Assembly: GCA_041906765.1 (NCBI GenBank)
Contig: JAYRIP010000005.1
Span: 65,581-129,580, forward strand
Direction: 5' to 3'
Source: Candidatus Saccharimonadales bacterium
Lineage (GTDB): Bacteria; Patescibacteriota; Saccharimonadia; Saccharimonadales; JAYRRP01
DNA length: 64,000 nucleotides
Shown: positions 19,633 through 55,807 of the stretch, piece after piece
Layout of the letters: each line of letters opens with the position of its first letter
How positions within the stretch are numbered: the first letter of the stretch is position 1
Notes under the pieces: model-generated
What the model was told of the DNA's origin: nothing
Database searches by the model: none
The model's input: only the letters and a program-made list of their open reading frames with translations
Made by a program: the position numbers and the translations under genes

Positions 19633-20223
19633 ATGAACAACTATCGCATAAAAAACACCAAAGGAAGTAGGAAAGCAACAAGAAATAAGTTACTTATTGG
19701 CTTCGGTGTTATTTTTTTCTCTGCCCTAATTATTGGTGGTCTTTATAAGGCAAATATATTGACCCTACCGTGGTTACATAAGAAAACCCCGTCCAGCAAT
19801 GGAACGGGTATAAATTACGGTCCTCCAACCAAGCAAGAGAAAGAAGAAACACAAGCTCACAAGGACTCACTAGGTCAAAACGATAATTCAGGTACTACGG
19901 CGCCTCCTTCTTCGGGTCAGAAAAAAAGTGTTACACCCGTTATAAGCTCATGGGGTCAAAATCTACAAACTCAAGACGTTGAAATAAGTGGCTATGTAGC
20001 AGGAGTATTTGAGGAAGGTGGTACTTGCACCGCAACATTATCAAAAGATAACCAAAAAGTGAGCGAATCAAAACAGGCAACAATAAACGCTCAAAACGTA
20101 AGTTGCGGTTTTATTTCAATTAGCAGATCAAAGCTTTCTGCTGGGAATTGGATAGTTACACTCGCTTATTCATCAGGATCCGCCCAAGGGAACTCACAAA
20201 ACCAAACATTAGAAGTAAAATAA
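19633..20223 (+). CDS. hypothetical membrane-anchored/secreted protein
   Basis: From the ATG at 19633 the protein begins MNNYRIKN, followed by a TM helix (LLIGFGVIFFSALIIGGL), a low-complexity S/T/Q-rich linker and a small beta-rich C-terminal domain. I recognised no family. Confidence 0.5.
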   Translation: MNNYRIKNTKGSRKATRNKLLIGFGVIFFSALIIGGLYKANILTLPWLHKKTPSSNGTGINYGPPTKQEKEETQAHKDSLGQNDNSGTTAPPSSGQKKSVTPVISSWGQNLQTQDVEISGYVAGVFEEGGTCTATLSKDNQKVSESKQATINAQNVSCGFISISRSKLSAGNWIVTLAYSSGSAQGNSQNQTLEVK

Positions 20224-20225
20224 TT

Positions 20226-42799: not shown

Positions 42800-44713
42800 C
42801 TAACTACCGGGGTACAGTCGATTATCGAGGTCTATTGTTCCCTCCGGTTGGTTTAGGTCTCCTTGTTGCTCGAGCTGCTTTATCTGCTCAGGATTGGTCG
42901 TGATCAGGCCGGTTTCGGTAGGACTGGCGGCAACCTGGATGTGCACATGGCTTTGGCCGGCAAAGAATAGCCCTTGGCCAATTGGGAACTGGCTGAGGCG
43001 TTTTCTCTCCTCGCTGGTGAGCTTAAACACATCGGTTAATACATCTACCGAAGAAGTTGCTTGTTTGAGCAACAGCTGCATGCTGGCATTGGCTACAATC
43101 GCTCGGCCCATCCGTGAACCCATAAAGTCTTCTACATCCTGGCTGATAGTAGTAACGCCCAAGTTATATTTTCGAGCTCGCTTGGCCAGGCTGAACATAA
43201 AGTTGGCCGAATCTTCATATTTCATGAGCTGCCACGCTTCATCAATTACCAAAATGCGGCGCTTTTTATCAGACTTGGTTTTATTCCAGATAAAGTTCAG
43301 CACGATATACATGGCGACCGGCCGGAGCTCGTCTTCCAGGTCACGGATATTAAACACAGCCATCGGGTTATTGATGTCGATATTTGATTGCTGCGAGAAA
43401 ATACCGGCAAAAGTACCGCTGGTGTATTTACGAAGACGCTGTGCCAGCGAAGGGCCACTACCGCCTACATGCAACAGCGTGTCATAGAGGTCGGCAATGG
43501 TAGGCGGCACGGCTGTATGTGTGAGCGGGTCATTAGTAATGCCGGCCTTGGCGTAAGTTTCGATCAGCGCGGCGTCCAGGTCGGCTTCTTCTACTGGACT
43601 GAGTGCGGGCATGGCAGCGACGCCGCCAGAAACCATTTGCGCCTGAGCGCCACCCATCATTAACCGTAGTAAGCCATGCAGAGTAATCAAGTTACTGCGC
43701 AAAGCGTTATCAGCTTCTTCGGGGTCTACCACTTGCGGAAGTTCAAACGGGTTAATGCGGGTAGCCGAGTTGAGGCTTAATCGCACATACGCCCCACCTA
43801 CCGCATCGCACATACGCTGATATTCATTTTCCGGGTCGATAATGAAGATCTCAGTACCAAACATCATACTTCGCAAAGCTTCAAGCTTCACGGCAAACGA
43901 CTTGCCGGCACCGGACTTGGCAAACACTACTGAATTGCCGTTCTCGAGCGTAAAACGGTCAAAAATTACTAAGCCCGAGTTGTGCATGTTGATGCCGTAC
44001 AAGATACCGTTATCTTGGCTAAGATCTGCTGAAGTAAACGGGAAGCTGGTACTGATAGCGCCAGTGTTCATGTTACGCCTGATCAGTAACTGATCAATGA
44101 GCTGAGGCACGGTGCTGTTAAAGCCCTGTTCTTGCTGGGCCGAAGCCACTTTGGAATATACCAATTGTTGACCGAGTAATGATTCAACCTTGTGAGTGAC
44201 AAAGTCGAGCTCTTCCAGAGTATTCGCATAGAGAGTAAAGTACAGTCCAAAGCGGAAAAACCGTTCTTCACCAACCTGCAATTTGTCACGCATTTCCTCA
44301 GCGTCCTGGATGGCAGCTTGTTTGCCTGGGTCACGGACACGGCCTTTTTCGTTATCTATCTGGATGCCAGCTTCCAGCTGGGTGACTTTTTTGCGTAAGT
44401 TCTCCAAAATCACTTGGCTGTCAACTGGGTAGATGTACATGGTGAGATCAATTACTTCGTCAAGGTTGACCATGCTGCTAAGCCAGCCGGTCATCACCTG
44501 ACGGGGGTAGCCGTACACATACATGGTGCGGGCAAAGCGGGTACCAAGGTGGAAAAAGCCATTTTCGTATACCAGTGAGCTCGGCGCGATAAAGTCGCGC
44601 AAAGCGGTTACGCCTTTCTGGAAAGCCGCTTGGACTTCTTGCTCTTCTTGCAGTCTTTGTGCCTGGGCAATAGCTGCAGGGTCGGTCGGTTGCTTCTTCT
44701 TGCCGAAAGCCAT
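42800..44713 (-). CDS. virB4: VirB4/TrbE-family T4SS ATPase (lacking the extreme N-terminal segment, see 44713..45681)
   Basis: It has Walker A FAKSGAGKSF and Walker B RILVIDEAWQLM, with the downstream block TTISQDVEDF. The N-terminal block FARTMYVYGYPRQVMTGWLSSM is as in Gram-positive VirB4 homologs. Confidence 0.85.
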   Translation of the reverse strand: MAFGKKKQPTDPAAIAQAQRLQEEQEVQAAFQKGVTALRDFIAPSSLVYENGFFHLGTRFARTMYVYGYPRQVMTGWLSSMVNLDEVIDLTMYIYPVDSQVILENLRKKVTQLEAGIQIDNEKGRVRDPGKQAAIQDAEEMRDKLQVGEERFFRFGLYFTLYANTLEELDFVTHKVESLLGQQLVYSKVASAQQEQGFNSTVPQLIDQLLIRRNMNTGAISTSFPFTSADLSQDNGILYGINMHNSGLVIFDRFTLENGNSVVFAKSGAGKSFAVKLEALRSMMFGTEIFIIDPENEYQRMCDAVGGAYVRLSLNSATRINPFELPQVVDPEEADNALRSNLITLHGLLRLMMGGAQAQMVSGGVAAMPALSPVEEADLDAALIETYAKAGITNDPLTHTAVPPTIADLYDTLLHVGGSGPSLAQRLRKYTSGTFAGIFSQQSNIDINNPMAVFNIRDLEDELRPVAMYIVLNFIWNKTKSDKKRRILVIDEAWQLMKYEDSANFMFSLAKRARKYNLGVTTISQDVEDFMGSRMGRAIVANASMQLLLKQATSSVDVLTDVFKLTSEERKRLSQFPIGQGLFFAGQSHVHIQVAASPTETGLITTNPEQIKQLEQQGDLNQPEGTIDLDNRLYPGS

Positions 44714-45681: not shown

Positions 45682-46770
45682 TTAGTGCAAAGAAACCACG
45701 ATTTCATCCGTAGACTGCCCTTTGGTCTTATGCTTTTGGTTTGCTTCACGCTCCAGGCTCGCCACGGACCGATCATTGTTTCTCGCCAGCCTTATTTTAT
45801 CAGGAACTCCGCCCTCTGTCATTCCGCTTGTGGCTTTTGGTGGGGCTGGTTTAGAGCCCAGTGGATCAATAATTTTCATGTGCGCAAAGCCAGTTGAGGT
45901 ATCAAGTTTATCCTTGTGCACCTTATTGAGCAAGGCTTGCTCGTCTTGGCCTGTTACCGTGGATTCAAAAGGATTTGGCGGCGGAGCTTCGGACACATGA
46001 GCAGTAAACGTAGCCAAGTTTGGCGGTGGTGGGGGTGGCGTGTTCATAAACCAGTAGTCGGGTGCCGGTGCAGGCTCTGAGTGAGCAGTTTTTGTGGTGT
46101 TTGCACCTCGGGCTTCTTCCATGCGCTCCACGGCAGCGGCTTTATGCTGCCTGGCAGCGGCGTTGACCATACTGTCGAGTTTTTGGGCAGTGGGGTTGTA
46201 TTGTTCATCCATAATATCGTCGGCTGCGCCAATGTCTACGGTTGGCAGCACTGGTGCAACGGACGAGGGGTCAAGTAACCGGTCGGTCTGCTGCTGATAG
46301 CCGGTCGTTGCGTAAGCTGGCTGGGTATACATATTCAGCGCCGCGTTCTTGATTGCCCAGCCGCGGCTGTCGAGCGTAGTCGATAACGCTCGAAGCCGGC
46401 TTCGCACTTCTGTTTCGTTGAGCCCTTTACTCTGATACGGGCTTTCTATTTTTGGCGCAGTAATAGTGACCAATTCTTCAATACCATCCTGATCCCATAC
46501 TCTTCTGCGTGGCTTGAACATAAAGCGCAGTTTTGCGGCCAGCCATACTTCTGTGGGTTGATCACGTCCCCATGGAAAAGCCAAAAAGCCAAAACTCACA
46601 ATAAAAGGAACCAGGATAAGGGCGATGTACCATAGTTTTTTGGTAAACAAAAAGAACGCCATATAGGCGCAGATGGCAGTAATCGCCGCAAAGATAAATT
46701 GCTTGAGCGTAAGGGGGCCTAAGAACTTATCCTCGGCCTCAATATCCTGGATAACCTTATACGTCGCCAT
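45682..46770 (-). CDS. PrgI-family (VirB3-like) T4SS membrane protein with long low-complexity C-terminal extension
   Basis: The N-terminus MATYKVIQDIEAEDKFLGPLTLKQFIF is followed by two TM helices, which is the PrgI-type pattern. The remaining ~260 aa are P/A/T-rich. It abuts the next gene with no gap. Confidence 0.5.
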   Translation of the reverse strand: MATYKVIQDIEAEDKFLGPLTLKQFIFAAITAICAYMAFFLFTKKLWYIALILVPFIVSFGFLAFPWGRDQPTEVWLAAKLRFMFKPRRRVWDQDGIEELVTITAPKIESPYQSKGLNETEVRSRLRALSTTLDSRGWAIKNAALNMYTQPAYATTGYQQQTDRLLDPSSVAPVLPTVDIGAADDIMDEQYNPTAQKLDSMVNAAARQHKAAAVERMEEARGANTTKTAHSEPAPAPDYWFMNTPPPPPPNLATFTAHVSEAPPPNPFESTVTGQDEQALLNKVHKDKLDTSTGFAHMKIIDPLGSKPAPPKATSGMTEGGVPDKIRLARNNDRSVASLEREANQKHKTKGQSTDEIVVSLH

Positions 46771-46817
46771 AATTACTTACTACTAAGTATAAGCGTTAAT
46801 CAGATAAGGGCAAGAGG
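46696..46817. repeat. copy A of ~120-bp duplication (PrgI-like gene start + its promoter)
   Basis: By hand alignment it is roughly 85% identical to 48313-48432, with a 2-nt indel in the leader. It contains the first ~25 codons, the ATG at 46770, and a TTGCCC-16-TATACT promoter-like element. Confidence 0.85.
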
Positions 46818-46847
46818 AATAACTTCCCTAGAATCAGGCATACATGG

Positions 46848-46870
46848 TTTGCAAGGAGACTCTCTGCAAA
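46848..46870. repeat. 23-bp palindromic element, copy 1 (tttgcaaggagactctctgcaaa)
   Basis: It is an imperfect member of the family whose consensus is TTTGCAGGGAGACTCCCTGCAAA. It lies between the PrgI-like promoter and the vapC 3' end. Confidence 0.85.
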
Positions 46871-46874
46871 CTGT

Positions 46875-46901
46875 GGACTAGGGACTGTTAACTAGGGACT
46901 A
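46875..46901 (+). repeat. heptamer array GGACTAG|GGACTGT|TAACTAG|GGACTAA
   Basis: It consists of four tandem 7-nt units (consensus GGACTAN) starting 4 nt after palindrome copy 1. The last units overlap the vapC stop. Confidence 0.8.
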
Positions 46902-47325
46902 AAAAGGGATTCACTACTTTTACGCCACTGTAGGTTTGGCCGGCCTGTAAATCTTCGCTGTAGAGTGTTTTGCAATCTAAATCCAGGGCAGCTTGCACAA
47001 TCAGCGAGTCGTAGAAACTAAGGCTGTACAACTGCAATAATTTTAGGGCACGTTCATAAAACTCAAAAGATGGGAAATGTTGACAGAGAGGCTTTAGGAT
47101 TTGACCCAAGAATGTCTCGAGTTCATTAGGTGACAGCTTCGTTTTGAACTTGTTCAGTGCGACATTTGCGAACTCCTGCACCACTTGCGAACTCACCACG
47201 GCTCGCTCGCTACGTATCAACTGTTCTATCAGAGCTTGGGCTTTTGCTTGTTTTACTTTGTCGGTGTGGTCGAACTGGTATACCCAAATGTTGGTGTCAA
47301 TAAATATAGGTGGGTTGCTTGCCAT
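46888..47325 (-). CDS. vapC: PIN-domain toxin (VapC-like)
   Basis: The N-terminus is IFIDTNIWVY with the first PIN acidic residue. It is 145 aa and pairs with the small upstream ORF. Confidence 0.75.
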   Translation of the reverse strand: MASNPPIFIDTNIWVYQFDHTDKVKQAKAQALIEQLIRSERAVVSSQVVQEFANVALNKFKTKLSPNELETFLGQILKPLCQHFPSFEFYERALKLLQLYSLSFYDSLIVQAALDLDCKTLYSEDLQAGQTYSGVKVVNPFLVPS

Positions 47326-47332
47326 ATAACAC

Positions 47333-47554
47333 CTAGCGTTGGTTCATTTCAGCTCGTGTAAATTTTCGTCCTGCGTTGGCATGGGCCATATTGAGTAGTA
47401 ATTTTTTGTACTGGGCCGCCCGGACCTTGCCGGGCACAGTTTGGGTTTCGAGCCACGCTCGGAATTCCTTATTTAGCGTACTACCCTTTTGGGCAGCAGT
47501 CTGCCGGGCTTGCTCGATTAACTTTTCGTCTGCGCTGAGTGTGATGTTCTTCAT
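47333..47554 (-). CDS. putative antitoxin of the VapC-like toxin
   Basis: It is 73 aa, lies 7 nt upstream of vapC, and is helical and basic (MKNITLSADEKLIEQARQTAAQKGSTLNKEFRAWLE). The assignment rests on position and size. Confidence 0.55.
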   Translation of the reverse strand: MKNITLSADEKLIEQARQTAAQKGSTLNKEFRAWLETQTVPGKVRAAQYKKLLLNMAHANAGRKFTRAEMNQR

Positions 47555-47605
47555 ACGAAAACAGTGTACACAAAAATAGTGTGAAAGTAAACAATTAAGA
47601 CTATC

Positions 47606-47628
47606 TTTGCAAGGAGACTCCCTGCAGA
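47606..47628. repeat. 23-bp palindromic element, copy 2 (tttgcaaggagactccctgcaga)
   Basis: It lies in the divergent intergenic region between the VapB-like and MazE-like genes. Confidence 0.85.
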
Positions 47629-47635
47629 GTGGATG

Positions 47636-47664
47636 TTGTGAGGTTATTATAATTTTGTTATAAT
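47636..47664 (+). promoter_or_regulatory. promoter TTGTGA-17-TATAAT, 7 nt upstream of ATG 47672 (leaderless candidate)
   Basis: The hexamers lie at 47636-47641 and 47659-47664, followed by 7 nt (aaacgct) and the ATG. There is no SD. Confidence 0.45.
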
Positions 47665-47671
47665 AAACGCT

Positions 47672-47896
47672 ATGATTACAAGCGTTAGAAAGATTATAAA
47701 AATTGGCTCTAGTGAGGGCGTTACCCTACCAGTTGATGAGCTAAAACACCAGGGTCTCAGGCTAGGTGACAAAGTAGAGGTTACTGTTCGTGCTATCCGC
47801 AAAAATACCGACTCTCAAGATCAAGCTATATTTGACGCGGCCAAAAAAATGCTTGCTGCTTACAAACAAGACTTCAAAAACTTATCACAAAGATGA
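47672..47896 (+). CDS. AbrB/MazE/SpoVT-type antitoxin
   Basis: It has the swapped-hairpin motif IKIGSSEGVTLPVDELKHQGLRLGDKVEV, is 74 aa, and overlaps the doc start by 4 nt. Confidence 0.75.
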   Translation: MITSVRKIIKIGSSEGVTLPVDELKHQGLRLGDKVEVTVRAIRKNTDSQDQAIFDAAKKMLAAYKQDFKNLSQR

Positions 47897-48270
47897 TAAC
47901 CCTGACCCTGGAGCAGATCTTACAAATCCATGTTTTGGTTGTCGAGCAAACAGGTGGCTCCCAGGGATTGCGTGATTTAGGTCGGCTTGAAGCAGTATTA
48001 GCTACTCAAACCCAAACTGTAATGGGGGATGAGGCATACCCTACCATATATGAAAAGTCTGCGGCAGTTATCATGGGTATTATTGCCAATCACCCCTTCA
48101 TAGATGGCAATAAACGCACCGCAATGCTGGCCGGACTAACTTTGCTTAGTATCAACAACACCCAGTTTGTTGCTAATCCAGGAGAAATAGAAGACTTTGC
48201 AGTAAAGATCGCCACAGAGCATTTAGCTGTGCCCGACATTGCAAACTGGCTAAAAGAACACTGCAGATAA
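47893..48270 (+). CDS. doc: Doc/Fic-family toxin (death-on-curing type)
   Basis: It has the Fic/Doc active-site motif HPFIDGNKRTA and is 125 aa. Confidence 0.85.
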   Translation: MITLTLEQILQIHVLVVEQTGGSQGLRDLGRLEAVLATQTQTVMGDEAYPTIYEKSAAVIMGIIANHPFIDGNKRTAMLAGLTLLSINNTQFVANPGEIEDFAVKIATEHLAVPDIANWLKEHCR

Positions 48271-48276
48271 CAATTA

Positions 48277-48387
48277 CTACAAAGGAGGTTTGCAAGGAGA
48301 CTCCCTGCGGAAAAATTGCTTAAGTGTCAGTGGGCCCAGAAACTTGTCCTCGGCCTCAATATCCTGAAGAACCTTATACATCGCCAT
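48277..48387 (-). pseudogene. truncated duplicate of the PrgI-like gene 5' end (about 25 conserved codons, then reads into palindrome copy 3)
   Basis: The reverse strand from ATG 48387 reads MAMYKVLQDIEAEDKFLGPLTLKQF, then FRRESPCKPPL*. The intact gene begins MATYKVIQDIEAEDKFLGPLTLKQF. The upstream promoter-like sequence is also duplicated. Confidence 0.75.
48289..48311. repeat. 23-bp palindromic element, copy 3 (tttgcaaggagactccctgcgga)
   Basis: It starts 19 nt after the doc stop and directly abuts the truncated PrgI-like fragment. Confidence 0.85.
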
Positions 48388-48432
48388 AATCTTACCCTTT
48401 AGTATAAGCGTTATCCAGATAAGGGCAAGCGC
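48313..48432. repeat. copy B of ~120-bp duplication (PrgI-like gene start + promoter)
   Basis: See copy A at 46696-46817. Confidence 0.85.
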
Positions 48433-48441
48433 TCCTTCTAA

Positions 48442-48468
48442 GGACTGTGGACTAAATACTACGGACTA
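48442..48468 (+). repeat. heptamer array GGACTGT|GGACTAA|ATACTAC|GGACTAG
   Basis: It consists of four tandem 7-nt units. The leading string CTGTGGACTA is shared with the array at 46871-46880. Confidence 0.8.
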
Positions 48469-48495
48469 GAACTCTTTGAGATTCACCCCTGAGCA

Positions 48496-49371
48496 CTATT
48501 CTCTGAGTTCTCTTAGTTTTTTTCTAAGTTTTTCTTGACGTGTTTCGAGCTTGGTAATCTTACGCTGCCTTCTTCTTGCTGGTACGGTCTCTCCTTGCGT
48601 ACCTCTTTCTAATCGCTCTTCTCGCCTTGCAATATATTTTTCTATTCTTCTTGCTTCGCGGATTTCCCGAAGCTGAGCCCTACGCTGATAAGGTCGGTTG
48701 CGTCCGTTCACTATGCTATCAAAATGTTCCCTAGAACCCAGGGAGCTCTCGAATGGAGCATCAAGTTTGGCAATTTTTTGTCTTTTCATCTCACGACGTT
48801 TTGCGTCTGGAGAGCTAAAATGCATTAATTCTATAGGTGTCTCTTGGGGCGTAGCTTTTGTCTGGTAGTTGTCGTTTAGTTGACGTAGTCTTACCTGCTT
48901 GCGCCGGATTCTTTTTACTTGACCCTGGCGGTGTAAAGAGGTGATACGTTCAACCATCCTTACTGGTTTGACTTCTTCTCTTTCTGGTGATGACTTAAAG
49001 CTACGACTTACAGTTGCGCCAGCGGGCGCTTCTTTTATTACATAATCAGATGAGGTAGCTTTGCGTAGCTTTTTACTCGTTCGGTGTAGGCGCCTTTCGG
49101 CTATAAATCTCCGGATTCCAGCTATCACTGAAGTGGAGTCGGTAATTTCTGTTGCTTCAATGTCGTTATTGTCACCTTCTGGTGTTGTTGGGTCTGTCGC
49201 GGCAACCTCATTGAAGCCCGAAGTATCACCTTGGCTGGGGGTATTTGCTCGGGTCTGCTCTACATTTGAGTTTGGAGGCGACTGAGTTTGAAACTCTGCT
49301 GGCAGCGGTGGCGTACCAGGAGGAAGAGGGAAAGGCTCAGTATTTTCGGGAGGTAGAAGAGACTCTGACAT
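48496..49371 (-). CDS. hypothetical highly charged protein (Pro-rich N-terminus, Arg/Lys/Glu-rich C-terminal half), T4SS-locus member
   Basis: It is 291 aa with no TM segment and a C-terminal half rich in R/K/E (RRRQRKITKLETRQEKLRKKLRELRE). It has its own strong promoter. I recognised no family. Confidence 0.5.
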   Translation of the reverse strand: MSESLLPPENTEPFPLPPGTPPLPAEFQTQSPPNSNVEQTRANTPSQGDTSGFNEVAATDPTTPEGDNNDIEATEITDSTSVIAGIRRFIAERRLHRTSKKLRKATSSDYVIKEAPAGATVSRSFKSSPEREEVKPVRMVERITSLHRQGQVKRIRRKQVRLRQLNDNYQTKATPQETPIELMHFSSPDAKRREMKRQKIAKLDAPFESSLGSREHFDSIVNGRNRPYQRRAQLREIREARRIEKYIARREERLERGTQGETVPARRRQRKITKLETRQEKLRKKLRELRE

Positions 49372-49378
49372 GGTTGTT

Positions 49379-49407
49379 ATAGTATCATTAAATCATGATA
49401 TTGTCAA
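49379..49407 (-). promoter_or_regulatory. near-consensus promoter TTGACA-17-TACTAT, 7 nt upstream of ATG 49371 (leaderless candidate), embedded in an inverted repeat
   Basis: The reverse strand reads TTGACA (49407-49402), a 17-nt spacer, TACTAT (49384-49379), then aacaacc and the ATG. An 8-bp inverted repeat, TATAGTAT / ATACTATA, flanks the region. Confidence 0.55.
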
Positions 49408-49448
49408 TACTATACTCTTGAACTCTTGGCTGATATATGGGTTCACGG

Positions 49449-52403
49449 TCAAGGCGTTGGGCCAGGAACTCCTGTGTAACCTGGCGGTATAGGACTAGTA
49501 GCACCTCCCGCATCATAGGCTCCTGCACGAGTGTGTATTTCCTGGGCAAGACTATCTGCACTTGGCGTTACTCTTGTTGGATCATGCACGGTCATATGTG
49601 TACTGACTATTTCGCCTAGTTGGTCTGCAGTTGAGAAAGGCCGTCCATATGCGTCAACAGCAGCCGGGTCAATCCCAACATGAGCCATAAGCGCCATGAT
49701 TTCTTGACGATTTTCAGGACTGGCGCTGCCAGCTGCCCCACGGATTGAGGTAATTTGTGAAGCATATTCGATGGCAGCATCATGGTCACCAGCTGCCATG
49801 GCTGCATTAAAGTCATCACCTAATTGTTGAGTCAGTTGATCAAAGCCATTATTTCTGCCGGCTACCAAGCTATGTACACCGCCTGCTTGGATAGTACGTG
49901 CTCGCATTCTCCTGTTGACTTCAGCACGTGAGGTGCCATTACGCATGTCATTAAGTGCGTTATATTGATCAACGTGTCCCGCAGTTGCAAGATCTGGTCT
50001 TCTCGCTCTTTCAGATGAAGAACGCATGCTTCCTAGCATAGCATTCTCGAGTGCCTGATTTCCGCCCGCACTGTCCATTATTGCTTGGTACATATCTGCG
50101 TGAGTATCATAGCCAGTTCCAGTTGCGGCGCGGCCCAAATCAGATGCTATGCTCACCGCTTGTTGTGAACCTGATTTTTGTGCCCTCTCTACCATAGATA
50201 CAGCTTGATTAAGTGAGGCAGATCCCTGCGCACCAAACCGTCCGGTAGCCACCAGTCTTCTTTCTATTGCATCACGGCTATGATCATATTTCATTGCCGT
50301 CAAAAGATGATCATCTGCAGCCACTGCTTTCATGTCACCATTTTCTTCTAATAATTTCTGGGCCTCAAAGAAGGACTGCATATCACGCTGGCTGTTTATT
50401 CTGCCTCGCATTCGGGCAGGATTGATACCTGCTTTGCCAAGTAAGGTTGCTGTCTGAAGGTGCCTGTTTAATCCACTTAGCCGGCCCTCCGGATTAAATC
50501 TTCGCCCAGACTTTGTATTCTGCCAATTTTTAGCAACTTCTTGCTTTCTAAAGCCCTTCAGACGGTCGAAGGCGCCGCGAGAGCGGTCGTTTACTAAGCC
50601 ACCAATTTGTCCAACTGCACCGCCAGCCAGTCGGAAGGCAAACGGCAATGCAAAGTATGGCCCAAAATAGGCGGCAAATGCAATGAGCGAAGCCAGCGTA
50701 TCATGGAGTGTTGAATCGCTACCCGGTACAGTAGTAGAATACGAAGCCACTTTTGCAAATGCATGCCCCGTAGCAATAAATGCGGAGATTATAGGAAAGG
50801 CGACCAGTGCTCGCCAGAAGAAGTCCCACCACATTTTCCAAACTCGCTCCGTGTTGGGCAATATGTAACAGGCTATGGCAATAGGGGCAACTATCACGAG
50901 CATCAGAATTAATAGTTGCCGAGCCGTTAGTACCAAAAAGGCTATGAGTACCGCAAGAATAGCTGTCCCCATAAGGCTGAGTATTCCCAGGAAACCGAGT
51001 GATAATCCCGCCGCACCAACAGCAACGGTTCCTATTGTCATTGCGCCATTATTAAAAGTCACTCCGTCTTTAAAGTTAGCATCAAATAATCTCTCAATTA
51101 ATTCTCTAATACCTACTCCTGCCACATTTGAAAATTCAATCAGAATGCGCAAGATTGGTAACGAAATTGAGATAAATATTACTGCAAACACTAGGCGAGG
51201 CATTACCTTTTTGATGGTGTACGCATCGAATGGTCCCCAGCTGACGGCTTGAGAAATTACCATCACTAGGCCGGCAATTACCAGTAAACCAAGCGAAAGG
51301 TTGCGCATACTTCCCCACGCATTTCCGAGACTATTGTTACTATTGTCGAAATAGTCCGCAGTAGGGAATGTCAGCATATAAGTGATGAGATTATCCAGTT
51401 GTCTAACCGCGCTCTCCGCTAACTTCAGCAGTGGACACATAAACCACTTAAGCGGATTCCAAGAAACAGCATCACAATCTATACCGGTTTTACCAGCCGC
51501 ATCACCCCCTTCACCGGGTCCGGGGGGCACCTCTACTCCTGCAGCTAACTTTTCCTCTATGCACTTTACAAGATCATTAACTCTCCCTTCGGCTATACAT
51601 TGCTCTTCGGCAATTGCCCGTTTATAAGCTTCTCCGCTGCTTATATAGGCATCCATACTACCTAATTTCTCCGCAAGCTCATTACATGTCATTGTTTCAT
51701 CATGTTCACCAAAATCTGTCCCCATTGGGTAAGTTCCAGCGTAATCCACACCTTTTTTTCTAAACCAACTGTCATCAATCTTCACGAAATTTGGATTATT
51801 TCCAGGTGATTCGAGTTCATTACCGGCATCAGGCGTGGCACACTTTAATTCAAAAGTATATTTAAGCCTCCTTATTCGTTCAGCATCTTGTAATGCTCGG
51901 TCTTGGATGTATTTATCCATTTTGCCAAGCATATTAGCCCTCTTGTCATAGTTAATTGCGGCACAATTTATAAGTTGCTGTTCCGGTGTGCAAGAATCGT
52001 ACAAATCGGCAAAAAACGCTCTATTATTTGCATATCCTAGATCCCTAACACTGCTACCAAAACTATTACAGTCGGCTGATCCACGCTCTTGATCAATCTC
52101 ATACCCTACATATGCACTTCCTCCTCTGCCATCACCTCGGTCGTATATATTGAGCGCATCGACTTTTGCTCCAATGTTAGAGTTTATTTTATAGGCAGCA
52201 TTGGTTTCGATACACTTCTTAAAGGCGACCATTTGCGTCCTTTTGTGCTGCTCATTTTGATCAGTGGTGGCACCCGCTGCATATGCTTTTGGTGTGCTTG
52301 TAATAAGTGGTGCCACAAGGCTGATCAGCACTACTATTACGTATGTGACAATGTAGAGGCGATGCAGTTTTGTTTGACCAGTTTTATTGTGTTTACGCCA
52401 CAT
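49449..52403 (-). CDS. VirB6/TrbL-like polytopic T4SS channel protein with large N-terminal ectodomain and ~400-aa C-terminal soluble extension
   Basis: It is 984 aa. It has an N-terminal anchor helix, a Cys-containing ectodomain of about 340 aa, a block of about 7 TM helices (residues ~370-600), and then a long hydrophilic tail. The topology and its position next to PrgI/VirB4-like genes support the assignment, but the family call was not verified by search. Confidence 0.55.
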   Translation of the reverse strand: MWRKHNKTGQTKLHRLYIVTYVIVVLISLVAPLITSTPKAYAAGATTDQNEQHKRTQMVAFKKCIETNAAYKINSNIGAKVDALNIYDRGDGRGGSAYVGYEIDQERGSADCNSFGSSVRDLGYANNRAFFADLYDSCTPEQQLINCAAINYDKRANMLGKMDKYIQDRALQDAERIRRLKYTFELKCATPDAGNELESPGNNPNFVKIDDSWFRKKGVDYAGTYPMGTDFGEHDETMTCNELAEKLGSMDAYISSGEAYKRAIAEEQCIAEGRVNDLVKCIEEKLAAGVEVPPGPGEGGDAAGKTGIDCDAVSWNPLKWFMCPLLKLAESAVRQLDNLITYMLTFPTADYFDNSNNSLGNAWGSMRNLSLGLLVIAGLVMVISQAVSWGPFDAYTIKKVMPRLVFAVIFISISLPILRILIEFSNVAGVGIRELIERLFDANFKDGVTFNNGAMTIGTVAVGAAGLSLGFLGILSLMGTAILAVLIAFLVLTARQLLILMLVIVAPIAIACYILPNTERVWKMWWDFFWRALVAFPIISAFIATGHAFAKVASYSTTVPGSDSTLHDTLASLIAFAAYFGPYFALPFAFRLAGGAVGQIGGLVNDRSRGAFDRLKGFRKQEVAKNWQNTKSGRRFNPEGRLSGLNRHLQTATLLGKAGINPARMRGRINSQRDMQSFFEAQKLLEENGDMKAVAADDHLLTAMKYDHSRDAIERRLVATGRFGAQGSASLNQAVSMVERAQKSGSQQAVSIASDLGRAATGTGYDTHADMYQAIMDSAGGNQALENAMLGSMRSSSERARRPDLATAGHVDQYNALNDMRNGTSRAEVNRRMRARTIQAGGVHSLVAGRNNGFDQLTQQLGDDFNAAMAAGDHDAAIEYASQITSIRGAAGSASPENRQEIMALMAHVGIDPAAVDAYGRPFSTADQLGEIVSTHMTVHDPTRVTPSADSLAQEIHTRAGAYDAGGATSPIPPGYTGVPGPTP

Positions 52404-52496
52404 TGAAGCTTTTTGGTGTTATGTTAAGTCTAATTAGAACGTATTGTAACAAATAGAACGCTTATGTTAAATAAACCAGAACATCTTTTATGTTTA

Positions 52497-52529
52497 TTAC
52501 TTGTGCAAAAATCAAAAAACAAGTAATAT
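52497..52529 (+). promoter_or_regulatory. candidate pilin-operon promoter (TTGTGC-17-TAATAT) overlapped by an 8-bp inverted repeat TTACTTGT-N14-ACAAGTAA
   Basis: The inverted-repeat arms lie at 52497-52504 and 52519-52526, and the hexamers at 52501-52506 and 52524-52529. Upstream, direct repeats of TAGAACG occur at 52433 and 52454, 21 nt apart. Confidence 0.35.
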
Positions 52530-52561
52530 TCAACCTAAAGTAAGACCTTTTCTTAAAAAGA

Positions 52562-53044
52562 ATGAAACAAAAAATAATACAAAGCATTCATTTGTTAGGA
52601 ATAATTCTTGTCAGTGCATTTGTAGCTTCGATGTTACTTCTTCCTGGTAGTGCTCAGGCGCAGCCTAATTATTTAGTGTCGCCACGAATTGTTGCCCAGA
52701 CTCCTCCACCAGACCAACAAGCACAACAGGACCCAGAGAAAATACCCCCAAAAGAATTACCAAGATCTGAGGGTTCAAGGGAGTGCAATAAAGATGTCGC
52801 AGGAGAGTGTGTTTCCAAAATGTTTGACTATATAAATTATGCTATTGCGGCAGTGGCAGCACTGGCAGGCGTAGTAATGATAATCGTTATAGTTGCGGCC
52901 GGCATTGAATATGCCTCTGCCGGTGGTGACCCGCAAAAAGTAGCCAGTGCCAAAAACCGCATCCGTAACGCTATTATCGGGTTAGTCGCTTTTGGTTTAC
53001 TATATGGATTCTTAAGCTGGCTTGTGCCTGGAGGGATAGGCTAA
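52562..53044 (+). CDS. VirB2/TrbC-like T4SS pilin paralog 1 (longest, Pro/Gln-rich N-terminal region)
   Basis: It has a signal peptide ending in AQA. The C-terminal two-helix module is AGIEYASAGGDPQKVASAKNRIRNAIIGLVAFGLL, shared by all six paralogs. Confidence 0.6.
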   Translation: MKQKIIQSIHLLGIILVSAFVASMLLLPGSAQAQPNYLVSPRIVAQTPPPDQQAQQDPEKIPPKELPRSEGSRECNKDVAGECVSKMFDYINYAIAAVAALAGVVMIIVIVAAGIEYASAGGDPQKVASAKNRIRNAIIGLVAFGLLYGFLSWLVPGGIG

Positions 53045-53045
53045 G

Positions 53046-53420
53046 ATGCTCCAGTATCTTTACCTGTTTGCGGCAGCGTGTAATAGCAAAAATTTCTTAG
53101 GTATTTTGCCCACCTGGTATAAATATCTGCCAACTTCACCAGGAAACGGGCTAGAATGTAATGTGAACTTTGATCCTAGGCAGGCCGACCAATGGGGTTT
53201 TATAGCCTTAGCATTCGTGGACATTTTGGTACGTATAGCAGGAATAGTTGCCTTAGGCTATATCATCTATGGCGGTATTCGATATATCACTAGCCAGGGT
53301 GAACCGGATGCTACCCGTGCTGCCCAGCATACGGTAATAAATGCCGTCATTGGCCTTGTCATTGCAATAATCGGTGCTACCGTTATAGGGTTTATCGGTA
53401 CTACCCTGGGAGGATCCTAA
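53046..53420 (+). CDS. VirB2/TrbC-like T4SS pilin paralog 2
   Basis: The C-terminal module is GGIRYITSQGEPDATRAAQHTVINAVIGLVIAIIG. Confidence 0.6.
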   Translation: MLQYLYLFAAACNSKNFLGILPTWYKYLPTSPGNGLECNVNFDPRQADQWGFIALAFVDILVRIAGIVALGYIIYGGIRYITSQGEPDATRAAQHTVINAVIGLVIAIIGATVIGFIGTTLGGS

Positions 53421-53423
53421 ATC

Positions 53424-53705
53424 ATGACGTCCACTTTGTTTACAATTATTTCCCAGATAAAAACGGCACCATTACCAAATGTTGATGACAGTACGACGGT
53501 CAAGGTATTACTCCAGCTAACCTTTGGCATTGCAGGTGCGCTGGCAGTGTTATTTCTTGTGTGGGGTGGCTTTAAGTACGTGACCAGCCAGGGTGAACCG
53601 GATCGGATTGCTAAAGCCAAAGACACCATATTATATTCGGTTATTGGGCTGGTGGTTACCATTGCATCATATGGAATAGTAGCGTACGTAACGAGTTGGC
53701 TATGA
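53424..53705 (+). CDS. VirB2/TrbC-like T4SS pilin paralog 3 (shortest)
   Basis: The C-terminal module is GGFKYVTSQGEPDRIAKAKDTILYSVIGLVVTIAS. Confidence 0.6.
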   Translation: MTSTLFTIISQIKTAPLPNVDDSTTVKVLLQLTFGIAGALAVLFLVWGGFKYVTSQGEPDRIAKAKDTILYSVIGLVVTIASYGIVAYVTSWL

Positions 53706-54082
53706 AATACAGAGCAATATTTGCATCAGTAATTATACTTTTGAGTATGTGCGTGGTGACATTTGGGTTGGCGCCAACTGCAAGAGCTTTTGCTCCAGTC
53801 AAAACCGCTTGCCCAGCAGAATCAGCGGGCTGTCCAGCAAACAAATCCAATCCTTTTTATGGTCCTAATGGGCTTATTACCAAAGTCACCAAAGTACTCG
53901 CTATTTTTACTGGCGTGGCAGCGGTGTTTGTACTGGTGATTGCCGGAATATCATTTATGACTTCCGGTGGTGAGCCGAGTAAAATTGCCACGGCCCGGCG
54001 CATGGTGCTGTATGCAGTGGTGGGTATTATGGTAGCAGTACTGGCACAAGGCGTAGCAAGTTATGTATTATCTAAGCTATGA
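53702..54082 (+). CDS. VirB2/TrbC-like T4SS pilin paralog 4
   Basis: The ATG at 53702 overlaps the upstream TGA (ATGA). It has a signal peptide ending in ARA. The module is AGISFMTSGGEPSKIATARRMVLYAVVGIMVAVLA. Confidence 0.6.
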   Translation: MKYRAIFASVIILLSMCVVTFGLAPTARAFAPVKTACPAESAGCPANKSNPFYGPNGLITKVTKVLAIFTGVAAVFVLVIAGISFMTSGGEPSKIATARRMVLYAVVGIMVAVLAQGVASYVLSKL

Positions 54083-54483
54083 GTACAAAACGATTTAATT
54101 TGGTCATAGGAATAGGAATACTTACAGGAGTATTTATGACCTCTGCGGTTTTGTTTATGCCGCGTTACAGTTACGCGCAATCAGACCCCAAGAACGCGGT
54201 TTGCGAAGGCGCACAGATAGGGCCAAACTGTTCTGCAGTACCTGGGGGCATTACTGTCGACAAGGTACTAAAGTTTGCGTTGAATACGCTCAGTATTGCC
54301 GCTGGTATCGTTGCTGTCGTGATGATGATTGTCGGTGGATTTAAGTATATGACCTCACAAGGTGATGCTAGCCAGACTGCCGCCGCCAAAAACACTATTC
54401 TCTATGCGGTAGTGGGGGTCATCATTGCAGTTCTTGCCCAAGTGATTGTGCGTTTCGTCTTAAGCAGGGTAAAGGGTAAATAA
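54079..54483 (+). CDS. VirB2/TrbC-like T4SS pilin paralog 5
   Basis: It has an ATGA overlap with paralog 4. The module is GGFKYMTSQGDASQTAAAKNTILYAVVGVIIAVLAQVIVRFVLSR. Confidence 0.6.
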   Translation: MSTKRFNLVIGIGILTGVFMTSAVLFMPRYSYAQSDPKNAVCEGAQIGPNCSAVPGGITVDKVLKFALNTLSIAAGIVAVVMMIVGGFKYMTSQGDASQTAAAKNTILYAVVGVIIAVLAQVIVRFVLSRVKGK

Positions 54484-54568
54484 AACGTAAAATCGCCAGT
54501 AGCAACTTGTATCTGCACAGCAATTTATGATATAACCAAAAGCAAGATAAGAAAGGCAAAAAGTTATT

Positions 54569-54985
54569 ATGATCAAGAAAATCAAAACACTACTGCTCAC
54601 TGTCAGCTTGGTAGGAGGCTTAGTTGCTCCCTTAGCGCTTCCGGTTGCAGCACATGCACAGGATGAGCTTATTCAGCCTACGCGGTGTGGCACCGACCTG
54701 AAGACGAACGATGTGAACTGCCCAGCCTATGACCCAACCTCGGAAGAACGTGTCAATAACATCATTAAACTAGCAGTTAACACCTTCTCGATACTTGTCG
54801 GTATCGTATCGGTAGTCATGATTATTGTCGGCGGACTCAAATACATTACCTCAGGCGGTGAATCAGCCAATGTCACGAGCGCCAAAAACACTATTCTCTA
54901 TGCAGTCATTGGACTTGTCGTTGTTGCACTCGCCCAAATAATTGTACGCTTCGTACTATCTCGAACAGCTAGCGCTGGCTCGTAA
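54569..54985 (+). CDS. VirB2/TrbC-like T4SS pilin paralog 6
   Basis: It has a signal peptide ending in AHA. The module GGLKYITSGGESANVTSAKNTILYAVIGLVVVALAQIIVRFVLSR is closest to paralog 5. Confidence 0.6.
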   Translation: MIKKIKTLLLTVSLVGGLVAPLALPVAAHAQDELIQPTRCGTDLKTNDVNCPAYDPTSEERVNNIIKLAVNTFSILVGIVSVVMIIVGGLKYITSGGESANVTSAKNTILYAVIGLVVVALAQIIVRFVLSRTASAGS

Positions 54986-54990
54986 GAAAT

Positions 54991-55020
54991 TAGTCCTCAG
55001 TACTTTAGCTCGTAGTAGTT
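54991..55020 (-). repeat. degenerate heptamer array in reverse orientation (TAGTCC / CAGTAC / TAGTAG units)
   Basis: TAGTCC (reverse complement of GGACTA) lies at 54991, with related units at roughly 7-nt spacing, just left of palindrome copy 4. Confidence 0.5.
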
Positions 55021-55041
55021 CCTCGTTCCCGAACTGCTTAA

Positions 55042-55064
55042 TTTGCAGGGAGACTCCCTGCAAA
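55042..55064. repeat. 23-bp palindromic element, copy 4 (TTTGCAGGGAGACTCCCTGCAAA, perfect)
   Basis: It has perfect 10-bp arms around the centre GAC and lies 26 nt before the relE stop. Confidence 0.9.
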
Positions 55065-55089
55065 ACAAAACACTCCCAATCCCCATCTC

Positions 55090-55350
55090 TTATCCGTAAA
55101 GTTGGCTATGGGTACCAATAAACCCGAATATAACAAGAGTGTTACCACGCTGGCTATAAATTGCCCGCAAATCTCCTGCAATATTAATACTTCGATAACC
55201 TCGGTATTTACCTCTCAAAGCATGGTCATGTAGCAAGAGGTCTTGAGGATTTTTCTGCCAAAGCAGAATACGTTTGTCGGTTTGGGTACGGAGTTTTGGC
55301 GAAAGTTTTGTGTATTGTTTAAGGAAGCTTCGGGAATACTTAATCCGCAT
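55090..55350 (-). CDS. relE: RelE/ParE-superfamily mRNA interferase toxin (YafQ/RelE-like)
   Basis: It is 86 aa with the motifs LRGKYRGYRSINIAGDLRAIY and GFIGTHSQLY, which are typical of the family. Confidence 0.8.
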   Translation of the reverse strand: MRIKYSRSFLKQYTKLSPKLRTQTDKRILLWQKNPQDLLLHDHALRGKYRGYRSINIAGDLRAIYSQRGNTLVIFGFIGTHSQLYG

Positions 55351-55352
55351 AC

Positions 55353-55643
55353 TTAAAGCTTCTTAGCCTCATTGTGGAGTGACTCGATCATTTCTTCAGC
55401 CGAATTAAATGGTCCGTAGGTTTCACCCCTGTCAACCTCCTGTTCGACTCTTTCAATAATGCGCTCCATTTGGGGTGTCATCCGTTCGGTGGCAGTAAAC
55501 TCTACGCGCCCAGTTGATACCATATCATTCAGGTAGGCGTTGATAAGGGTCGACAACGGAATACCAATTGCCTTAGCGGTTTGTTGCGCCTGGTCCTTAA
55601 GATCTTTATCAATCTTGAAACTCATAGTAGTTTTATCACTCAT
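55353..55643 (-). CDS. relB: RelB/DinJ-type antitoxin
   Basis: It has the ribbon-helix-helix N-terminus MSFKIDKDLKDQAQQTAKAIGIPLSTLINAYL. The ATG at 55643 is chosen because of the promoter at 55651-55679. The track start at 55679 lies within that promoter. Confidence 0.75.
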   Translation of the reverse strand: MSDKTTMSFKIDKDLKDQAQQTAKAIGIPLSTLINAYLNDMVSTGRVEFTATERMTPQMERIIERVEQEVDRGETYGPFNSAEEMIESLHNEAKKL

Positions 55644-55650
55644 GCGTACT

Positions 55651-55679
55651 ATAGTATATACTTTGGCATGAATAGTCAA
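55651..55679 (-). promoter_or_regulatory. promoter TTGACT-17-TACTAT, 7 nt upstream of ATG 55643 (leaderless candidate)
   Basis: The reverse strand reads TTGACT (55679-55674), a 17-nt spacer, TACTAT (55656-55651), then agtacgc and the ATG. This is the same architecture and -10 hexamer as at 49379-49407. Confidence 0.5.
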
Positions 55680-55710
55680 AAGGTGTTCACAAAAACTAAC
55701 TAAGAACCAG

Positions 55711-55751
55711 GGACTAGAATCTATGGACTACGTACTAAGGACTATGGACTA
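55711..55751 (+). repeat. heptamer array GGACTAG|AATCTAT|GGACTAC|GTACTAA|GGACTAT|GGACTAG
   Basis: It consists of six tandem 7-nt units and ends 1 nt before palindrome copy 5. Confidence 0.85.
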
Positions 55752-55752
55752 G

Positions 55753-55775
55753 TTTGCAGGGAGTCTCCCTGCAAA
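55753..55775. repeat. 23-bp palindromic element, copy 5 (TTTGCAGGGAGTCTCCCTGCAAA, perfect, centre inverted relative to copy 4)
   Basis: It is the exact reverse complement of copy 4. Together the two copies bracket the relBE cassette. Confidence 0.9.
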
Positions 55776-55807
55776 ACTATACTCTAAGGACTAACTCTTG
55801 CGGGCTT

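Follow-up and report, generated by a model that had tools for sequence, protein, structure and literature searches.

Cassettes and repeats at a type IV secretion locus

The stretch of 64,000 nucleotides analysed here (the window) is part of contig JAYRIP010000005.1 from a Candidatus Saccharimonadales bacterium. It carries a type IV secretion locus at which three toxin–antitoxin (TA) cassettes are accompanied by two kinds of short repeat, a 23-nt palindrome and tandem heptamers of consensus GGACTAN. The secretion cluster is of the Saccharibacteria type and spans ~37.6 to 55 kb, as assigned from Pfam matches of the window genes and Pfam labels of their orthologues. It comprises cell-wall hydrolases, a VirB4-like ATPase (42800–44713), a PrgI-family gene (prgI; 45682–46770), a TrbL/VirB6-like gene of 984 amino acids and six consecutive pilin paralogues of the type IV secretion system in tandem (52562–54985), and is followed by hsp20 and then by a ComF-like gene. 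Homologues of the cluster proteins are labelled Candidatus Saccharimonadales or Saccharibacteria at source.

The three cassettes are genuine type II TA pairs, with all components assigned using Pfam. A vapBC-like cassette on the minus strand (46888–47554) comprises a PIN/VapC toxin (46888–47325) and an antitoxin resembling the ribbon–helix–helix (RHH) class (47333–47554). The phd-doc cassette lies on the plus strand (47672–48270), where a MazE/AbrB-like antitoxin (47672–47896) precedes a Fic/Doc toxin (47893–48270) behind its own predicted promoter (47636–47664). The relBE cassette, again on the minus strand (55090–55643), consists of a YafQ/RelE-type toxin (55090–55350) and a RelB-like antitoxin (55353–55643) with a predicted promoter at 55651–55679. 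Both the VapB-like and the RelB-like antitoxin give RHH-type Pfam matches.

A search of the whole window with TTTGCAGGGAGACTCCCTGCAAA, allowing up to three mismatches, found exactly five palindrome sites, at 46848, 47606, 48289, 55042 and 55753, where shuffled sequence gives an expectation of 0.00. Their hairpin has a 9-bp stem and a 5-nt loop, of the type TTTNCA[AG]GG-N5-CC[CT]TGNAAA, the core of the window type being GGAGNCTCC. The copies are numbered REP1 to REP5 here, in anticipation of their assignment below as repetitive extragenic palindromic (REP) elements. REP1 (46848–46870; TTTGCAAGGAGACTCTCTGCAAA; two mismatches to the consensus) lies between the 3′ end of vapC and the prgI promoter, and REP2 (47606–47628; TTTGCAAGGAGACTCCCTGCAGA) between the vapB and phd-like promoters, which point away from each other. 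REP3 (48289–48311; TTTGCAAGGAGACTCCCTGCGGA) has a truncated 3′ foot joined directly to a prgI remnant (prgI′). REP4 (55042–55064), a perfect palindrome identical to the search sequence, is located between the 3′ ends of the last pilin gene and relE, and REP5 (55753–55775) between the 3′ end of hsp20 and the relB promoter, within a heptamer array. REP4 and REP5 are inverted and 688 nt apart, on either side of relBE. The five spacers next to the TA genes thus hold one palindrome each; five random placements would hit exactly those spacers about once in 5 million trials, given ~60 spacers by a rough count from a crude list of open reading frames (ORFs).

The first-pass annotation of the window had listed these five copies and no others, had described copy 5 as the exact reverse complement of copy 4 and had placed the copies at the borders of the TA pairs, and all of this is borne out (the identity of REP5 to the complement of REP4 is 100%). 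Its proposal that copies 1–3 favour a hairpin on the minus strand holds for one of them. RNA folding gave −15.2 kcal/mol on the plus strand and −8.9 kcal/mol on the minus strand for REP1, similar values on both strands for REP2 and a minus-strand preference for REP3 alone. REP4 folds at −14.9/−17.6 kcal/mol, and REP4 and REP5 together range from −15 to −18 kcal/mol on both strands.

The heptamers form three arrays, at 46875–46902, 48442–48469 and 55699–55752 (seven matches against 0.03 expected), all of them on the minus strand, where array 1 reads NTAGTCC. Array 1 provides the last four codons and the stop codon of vapC. Array 2 begins 27 nt past the stop codon of a gene encoding 291 amino acids and 14 nt upstream of the −35 box of a duplicated prgI promoter. 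Array 3, with seven in-phase TAGs, is located past hsp20 and precedes the relB −35 box by 20 nt. Reading of the sequence adds three further minus-strand units past REP5 (55774–55794) in the same 7-nt register (55746 to 55788 is 42 nt); these units and the duplication of the prgI 5′ end and promoter were absent from the earlier reading. On the plus strand, a degenerate array (54989–55020; TTAGTCC TCAGTAC TTTAGCT CGTAGTA) begins 4 nt past the pilin stop codon and has an orthologous array in the related locus L064 (loci compared here carry the prefix L), but is weak, with just two in-phase TAGs. Arrays had been reported beside four of the five palindromes. Three are confirmed and the fourth is the weak one; three adjoin a palindrome, at 4 nt (REP1), 1 nt (REP5) and 21 nt (REP4), whereas array 2 is separated from REP3 by 130 nt containing a gene fragment and a promoter.

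The palindrome family and transposase genes in relatives

One representative genome per species was scanned with a degenerate pattern of the palindrome core. The matches were mainly scattered and single, with nine loci from metagenome-assembled genomes (MAGs) of Saccharibacteria, in which the motif mostly forms a 41-nt inverted doublet, TTGCAAGGAGACTCCCTGC-N-GCAGGGAGTCTCCTTGCAA, present in few copies in the spacers of ordinary housekeeping genes. Such doublets occur in L016, L019, L035, L037, L049 and L082. In L049 a gene for a 207-residue Y1_Tnp protein (Pfam) lies between two doublets; L043 contains a further homologue, and in L032 a homologue is located between two inverted copies whose GGGAGACTCC core is identical to that of the window. 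All three proteins retain the HUH (NHFHLL) and RYIHLNP motifs and score 33–45 bits against Pfam Y1_Tnp (cut-off 23), and they are referred to here as resembling REP-associated tyrosine transposases (RAYTs).

An alignment of the three RAYT-like proteins was used as the query for a metagenome scan, which returned 516 relatives; 80 loci were fetched, of which 62 were evaluable. Palindrome arms of at least 9 bp were found within 150 nt of the RAYT-like gene in 32 of these 62 loci (on both sides in 21), compared with two of 117 control windows. The flanking hairpins repeatedly follow the consensus given above, to which the window palindrome is an exact fit, and their left and right copies are often reverse complements of each other. 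Inverted REP pairs surround the RAYT gene in L032, L072, L106, L133 and L138, and the L106 hairpin, TTTGCAAGGAGCCTCCTTGCAAA, is a near-match to that of the window. Covariation of the stem was examined in 141 distinct 23-mers near RAYT-like genes, which were anchored on GG-N5-CC alone. Paired cells amounted to 82%, against 34–59% when the partners were slid, and 227 double-sided changes were counted where 88 were expected, affecting seven of the nine pairs; none of 500 shuffles matched this.

Because hairpins of the same type are associated with RAYT-like genes in relatives from the candidate phyla, the window palindrome is assigned to the REP elements of RAYT-like systems, one of the candidates offered at first pass. 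Sequence comparison supports an element of a known type, with a variant and a host group that appear new or unusual. The resemblance to the REP/RAYT systems of Escherichia coli (yafM and bacterial interspersed mosaic elements, BIMEs) and Pseudomonas (REP doublets forming hairpins, REPINs) lies in the short extragenic hairpin palindromes, some copies of which have a stem mismatch, in their position around a single Y1/HUH transposase gene in relatives, often as inverted pairs or doublets, and in a stem that varies between lineages in a manner implying co-evolution with the enzyme. Unlike those systems, the copy number here is very low and the host genome tiny, while genes of this kind are reported from genomes of above-average size (PMC6006769), and the window copies are single rather than doublets of the REPIN or BIME type.

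Several features of the wider family were recorded in passing. REP hairpins lie within RAYT-like coding regions in L103, L108, L115 and L147, as for TnpA-REP subclass 2.4, in which REPs are inserted in-frame inside the transposase gene (PMC6006769). At L035 3237–3289, L049 5195–5247, L102 121–165 and L106 1567–1613 the REPs are extended by outer palindromic arms, which are not the same in every copy; they may reflect a REP landing inside the loop of a hairpin that was already there, or flanks duplicated in inverted orientation. L032 and L048, which combine a RAYT-like gene with REPs of the window's core, belong to MAG CAYRUS01, labelled Gammaproteobacteria (34% G+C); either these contigs were binned wrongly or the system has been transferred among distant hosts. 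Scans of viral contigs gave no REP match.

Other classes of element account less well for the palindromes. IS200/IS605 elements share the Y1/HUH enzyme class and subterminal hairpins recognized on single-stranded DNA, but the related enzymes here have the motif Y-I-H-L-N-P and not Y---Q, TA genes rather than TnpA or TnpB lie between the window hairpins, and these hairpins are one sequence inverted instead of distinct left and right ends, with no multi-copy whole element. The suggestion of IS200/IS605-type ends fails for want of such defining features, as does that of an attC-like site. The five copies do lie between modules, one pair being inverted, as would suit site-specific recombination sites that delimit exchangeable modules, either attC-like or Xer/dif-like as in the pdif modules of Acinetobacter. 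The latter often carry TA genes. An integron attC is an imperfect inverted repeat of 55–140 nt with extrahelical bases, and an Xer/dif site is ~28 nt long with 11-nt arms and a spacer of 6–8 nt (an 11-6-11 arrangement), whereas the window palindrome is 23 nt long with 9-bp arms and a 5-nt centre. Integron cassettes are also promoterless and share one orientation, with intI/attI nearby, whereas those of the window have predicted promoters of their own and do not all point the same way. No gene for an integrase or Xer recombinase was seen beside the locus among those of its genes that were scanned. The arms, finally, show the covariation of a hairpin family linked with RAYT genes, an association that provides the better account. 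A role as recombination sites of either kind is therefore extremely unlikely.

Heptamer arrays and stop codons

The heptamer is best described as a run of TAG-N4. Thirteen arrays from six genomes all show TAG at 7-nt intervals on the strand that is sense for a nearby gene; the stop codon of that gene ranges from 17 nt inside the array to 56 nt upstream of it and mostly overlaps the array or lies within 10 nt. Since 7 is 1 modulo 3, three units suffice to place stops in all three frames. The association with gene ends is illustrated by vapC, the product of which ends in VNPFLVPS in the window, where array 1 supplies the terminus, versus a native VNPFEK in L067 (L067 9103–9534). The replacement of the vapC end by array sequence places the junction between cassette and array within the last codons of the gene (46888–46902).

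The first-pass annotation had joined palindromes and heptamers into a single composite repeat family, a view that the analysis does not support. No 7-nt periodicity (lag 7) was found beside 142 REPs in other loci, which rules out the heptamers as part of the REP family, and arrays without REPs exist on both sides of relBE in L064, beside relBE and a bAvd-like gene in L154–L156, and in L073 between two housekeeping genes, lepB and parB, with no TA module nearby. Two further assignments were rejected. One, that of the heptamers as a GTAG-like REP tag, could draw on anecdotal GACTAC...GTAGTC flanks in L032 and L048, but the family as a whole shows no such signal. The other, in which the heptamers are terminal inverted repeats bounding the relBE cassette, could draw on the outward-facing arrays of L064 and the window, an orientation that the convergent flanking genes explain more simply; the L073 arrays are also free of any cassette.

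The arrays might instead be DNA operators of an RHH protein, perhaps of the RelB or VapB antitoxin type, that would co-regulate the prgI and relBE promoters by analogy with the omega repressor of pSM19035, which binds NATCACN heptads and regulates the epsilon–zeta TA operon (PMC3920265). The three window arrays do lie upstream of predicted minus-strand −35 boxes, arrays 2 and 3 within 14–20 nt and array 1 upstream of the prgI promoter at a distance of REP1 plus 33 nt, and the likeness extends to tandem 7-bp units, direct or inverted, near TA promoters and to RHH proteins encoded nearby. However, the unit sequence differs from that of the omega heptads, and the arrays trail stop codons strand-specifically, also where no promoter follows. 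Arrays at convergent gene ends without a downstream promoter (those of pilin, folD, the L154 response-regulator gene, lepB and parB) still follow the sense-strand stop-codon rule, and those of L073 flank housekeeping genes. A regulator platform is possible but is disfavoured by this strand rule relative to the upstream genes, and operators of the omega type seem very unlikely.

Because the convergent-end arrays have no promoter to serve, a strand-specific role at 3′ ends is favoured. We know of no explanation for stop-codon-anchored arrays of TAG heptamers. A formal resemblance, and only that, is offered by the HutP sites of the Bacillus subtilis hut terminator, where XAG motifs 7 nt apart lie on either side of a G–C-rich stem (PMC2425495). 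Similarly, UAG recurs every 7 nt here and the runs at REP5 flank a strong hairpin in one register; unlike the hut case, the REP5 hairpin has no U-tract and the arrays occupy 3′ regions, not a 5′ leader.

Some observations on heptamers elsewhere stand by themselves. At L073 1056–1153 two inverted GTAG-type arrays face each other across 32 nt between the convergent lepB and parB genes with no cassette between them, and could pair into a long imperfect hairpin. L155 1013–4416 and L156 629–3820 contain tandem single-domain response-regulator paralogues interleaved with relBE, an orphan FitA-like RHH gene and a gene of the bAvd/23S-rRNA intervening-sequence (IVS) type, with TAG-heptamer arrays at several gene junctions. 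The viral contig scans gave 88 heptamer matches, about as many as chance and microsatellites together would give. Perfect microsatellites with a different heptamer unit are (ATGCTAA)8 directly upstream of a tRNA gene (L110 3466–3521) and (AGCAAAT)5 near the 3′ end of a response-regulator gene (L156 1518–1572).

In the remainder of the window, which has a G+C content of 44%, dnaA, dnaN and recF were read off crude ORF translations near 32–36 kb, and an Rfam scan of the window found two tRNAs and no other RNA family. A 168-nt tandem repeat (3.8 copies, 72% matches; 21267–21902) lies inside an ORF of 603 codons (20148–21959), and the last two pilin paralogues have a 75-nt stretch in common at 76% identity.

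Cassette turnover and the origin of the locus

The 5′ end of prgI has been duplicated together with its promoter. Copy 1 (46693–46814, minus strand) contains intact prgI codons 1–27 and the promoter TTGCCC-16-TATACT (46786–46813), and copy 2 (48310–48429, minus strand; 85% identity to copy 1) contains the 27 codons of prgI′ and a second promoter (48401–48428). REP1 is absent from the paralogous spacer of copy 2. The duplicated promoter, an intact copy of the first, is aimed through REP3 and antisense into doc, and REP3 may be the sole barrier to such transcription. This arrangement suits an explanation in which a dimeric regulator binds the palindrome as its double-strand operator, or in which the palindrome ends transcripts as a hairpin and insulates the cassettes, with the RAYT link incidental: REP3 would then block antisense transcription into doc, gene 3′ ends host four of the five copies, REP4 and REP5 fold stably on both strands, and PMC3333891 and PMC3733652 describe REPs as transcript stabilizers or attenuators. 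Set against this, the hairpins are framed TTT...AAA with no T-run 3′ to them on either strand, and a scan found no intrinsic terminator at any REP, so that this class of element was rejected as such. REP2 is located between divergent promoters, copies 1–3 are weak or asymmetric hairpins and the strong enrichment around RAYT genes would be left unexplained, which makes an operator or insulator quite unlikely as the primary identity of the palindromes.

Comparison with relatives shows that the cassettes are accessory and turning over, as had been supposed, since they are variously present and absent. L064–L066 (PrgI 82% identical) carry relBE and lack vapBC and phd-doc, with a 122-nt cassette-free spacer between a gene encoding 288 amino acids and prgI. 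L067 (PrgI 62% identical) has vapBC at the window's site and lacks relBE and phd-doc; its nucleotide identity to the window is 74% from prgI through vapB and ends at 47594, 12 nt before REP2. The relBE cassette of L064 has no REP5, and the place of REP4 is taken by a decayed TTTGCAGTAAGTGCAAG. Exact protein matches were to the same strain only, except in L053 (SRR11913995). In that locus the prgI–virB4 region is 99.87% identical to the window and the upstream sequence (L053 1–140) is of the cassette-free L064 type, with the switch at ~46817; This recombinant strain, L053, provides evidence that recombination has recently taken place at the hot spot. A loose parallel is found in E. coli B1 strains, where hicAB occupies the REPtron site and replaces the whole REPtron (PMC3333891), so that one position in the chromosome holds either a TA operon or a REP/RAYT locus; there the BIMEs are lost together with tnpA-REP, whereas here REPs persist on both sides of the TA genes.

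Direct target repeats bracket the inserts in three independent cases: ~120 nt in the window, 87 nt in L067 and ~40 nt in L150. In the last of these (L150 1905–2600) a relBE homologue lies in a different context, and the duplication re-encodes the last 13 codons (AKRVRAVLEPAD, then stop) of the neighbouring HTH-HAD gene. In a search for recent cassette movement, Doc homologues were at most 72% identical and had no REPs in the two contexts examined. RelE homologues, at most 70% identical, were accompanied by heptamer arrays and target duplications and not by REPs. Long direct duplications of this kind suggest recombinational integration over transposition from REP to REP, and the lack of REP5 in L064 and of REP1 at the duplicate means that REPs were later arrivals or have been lost, and are dispensable for the cassette either way.

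We therefore favour, with a probability of roughly 0.6, an explanation in which two unrelated repeat types, the REP hairpins and the stop-codon-anchored heptamers, meet at a hot spot for TA cassettes in the type IV secretion locus, which the cassettes enter by recombination. The palindromes would act as REP elements in the form of single-strand hairpins, the cognate enzyme in related genomes being a RAYT-like Y1/HUH tyrosine transposase. By analogy with E. coli, this enzyme would bind the folded hairpin on single-stranded DNA and cut and rejoin nearby, thereby seeding copies in permissive spacers, and the copies, as strong hairpins, may serve secondarily as transcript-end barriers between cassettes and resident genes. 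The heptamers, as TAG-N4 runs on the sense strand from or just past the stop codon of the adjacent gene, would have a 3′-end role at the level of RNA or translation, for example as a tract that insulates or provides stops in every frame, or as the binding platform of a protein recognizing UAG repeats. The TA cassettes most probably entered via recombination that duplicates a target of 40–160 nt, either Campbell/att-like or by homology-assisted illegitimate joining, and the REPs would be neighbours of the cassettes, once a breakpoint, rather than transposon ends.

A number of observations weigh against this explanation. There is no RAYT or Y1 transposase gene in the 64-kb window, so that a cognate enzyme in the source organism is an assumption, and the RAYT-like proteins of relatives are distant, their single NCBIfam match (REP-associated tyrosine transposase) reaching 38–45 bits, below the 80-bit cut-off. 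No GTAG/CGTC-type tag is conserved beside 135 REPs, whose 16-nt flanks have neither a conserved position nor a 4-mer of strong enrichment, and the palindrome is for this reason left outside the canonical superfamily of GTAG-tagged REPs. Atypical hairpins that lack the tag are described for some TnpA-Y1 subclasses, and the REPs of subclasses 2.6 and 3 are untagged too (PMC6006769). Stem covariation would be equally expected from a symmetric double-strand binding site. The 13 heptamer arrays include orthologous pairs, which leaves only ~8 independent cases. The homology of the prgI duplication starts at 48310, so that the inner end of the duplicate abuts the 3′ foot of REP3, and relBE is enclosed by REP4 and REP5 in the inverted arrangement that is found around RAYT genes elsewhere. 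All five REPs of the window, and all four REP-like copies in the 20.7 kb of L067 (clustered at the vapBC flanks, with cores that differ from those of the window), adjoin TA cassettes only. Ordinary dispersed REPs would not be so confined, which leaves room for a real link between REPs and cassettes.

The last three of these points would be natural if the REP-bounded cassettes were non-autonomous mobile units with hairpins as ends, RAYT acting in trans, TA genes as cargo and the CTA of the heptamers as possible cleavage and joining sites: an exact inverted pair in the arrangement of the RAYT genes, a rearrangement junction at a REP foot and confinement to TA cassettes in two lineages with different cores. 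According to PMC3333891, moreover, E. coli TnpA-REP cuts between C and T, CTAC included, up to hundreds of nucleotides from the REP, and strand exchange is possible. The first-pass annotation had likewise taken the palindromes for cassette ends. Against such units stand the orthologous relBE of L064 without REP5, the absence of REPs at phd-doc and relBE homologues in other contexts and the ~120-nt target duplication around the cassette block, which peel-and-paste transposition by a Y1 enzyme does not make. In addition, the same cassette was not found at two sites with REP-to-REP boundaries, and REPtrons are reported to be immobile as units (PMC6006769). That the palindromes are the cassette ends is thus not supported, although one duplication junction in the window does abut REP3. 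Mobilization of cassettes by RAYT, and with it a causal link between REPs and cassette capture, is possible, but mobile units bounded by REPs seem unlikely. A bolder proposal joins the two repeat types functionally. The heptamers would be undescribed (UAG-N4)n 3′-end elements of Saccharibacteria at junctions between resident and cassette genes, serving as all-frame stops or as a platform for a UAG reader, and coupled to REPs in this lineage, where hairpin-bound RAYT would cut the heptamer CTA and promote the capture or exchange of cassettes. We put forward such a cassette-docking module, derived from a domesticated REP/RAYT system, only tentatively and regard it as doubtful.

Whichever link holds, the locus is a record of TA cassettes turning over between strains within a type IV secretion cluster, and the long target duplications at the cassettes are a tractable signature of DNA acquisition in these organisms. 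The stop-codon-anchored TAG heptamers, the unexplained residue of the locus, constitute a simple and testable pattern. To our knowledge, nearly all work on REP/RAYT systems has concerned large genomes of proteobacteria, and a literature search combining REP/RAYT with candidate-phyla terms returned no paper describing them there. If the assignment is true, the compact hairpin, with its short stem and loop, offers rich natural covariation for studies of recognition, and a widespread REP/RAYT family in the ~1-Mb genomes of episymbionts would mean that even extremely streamlined genomes keep such a pair of repeat and enzyme.

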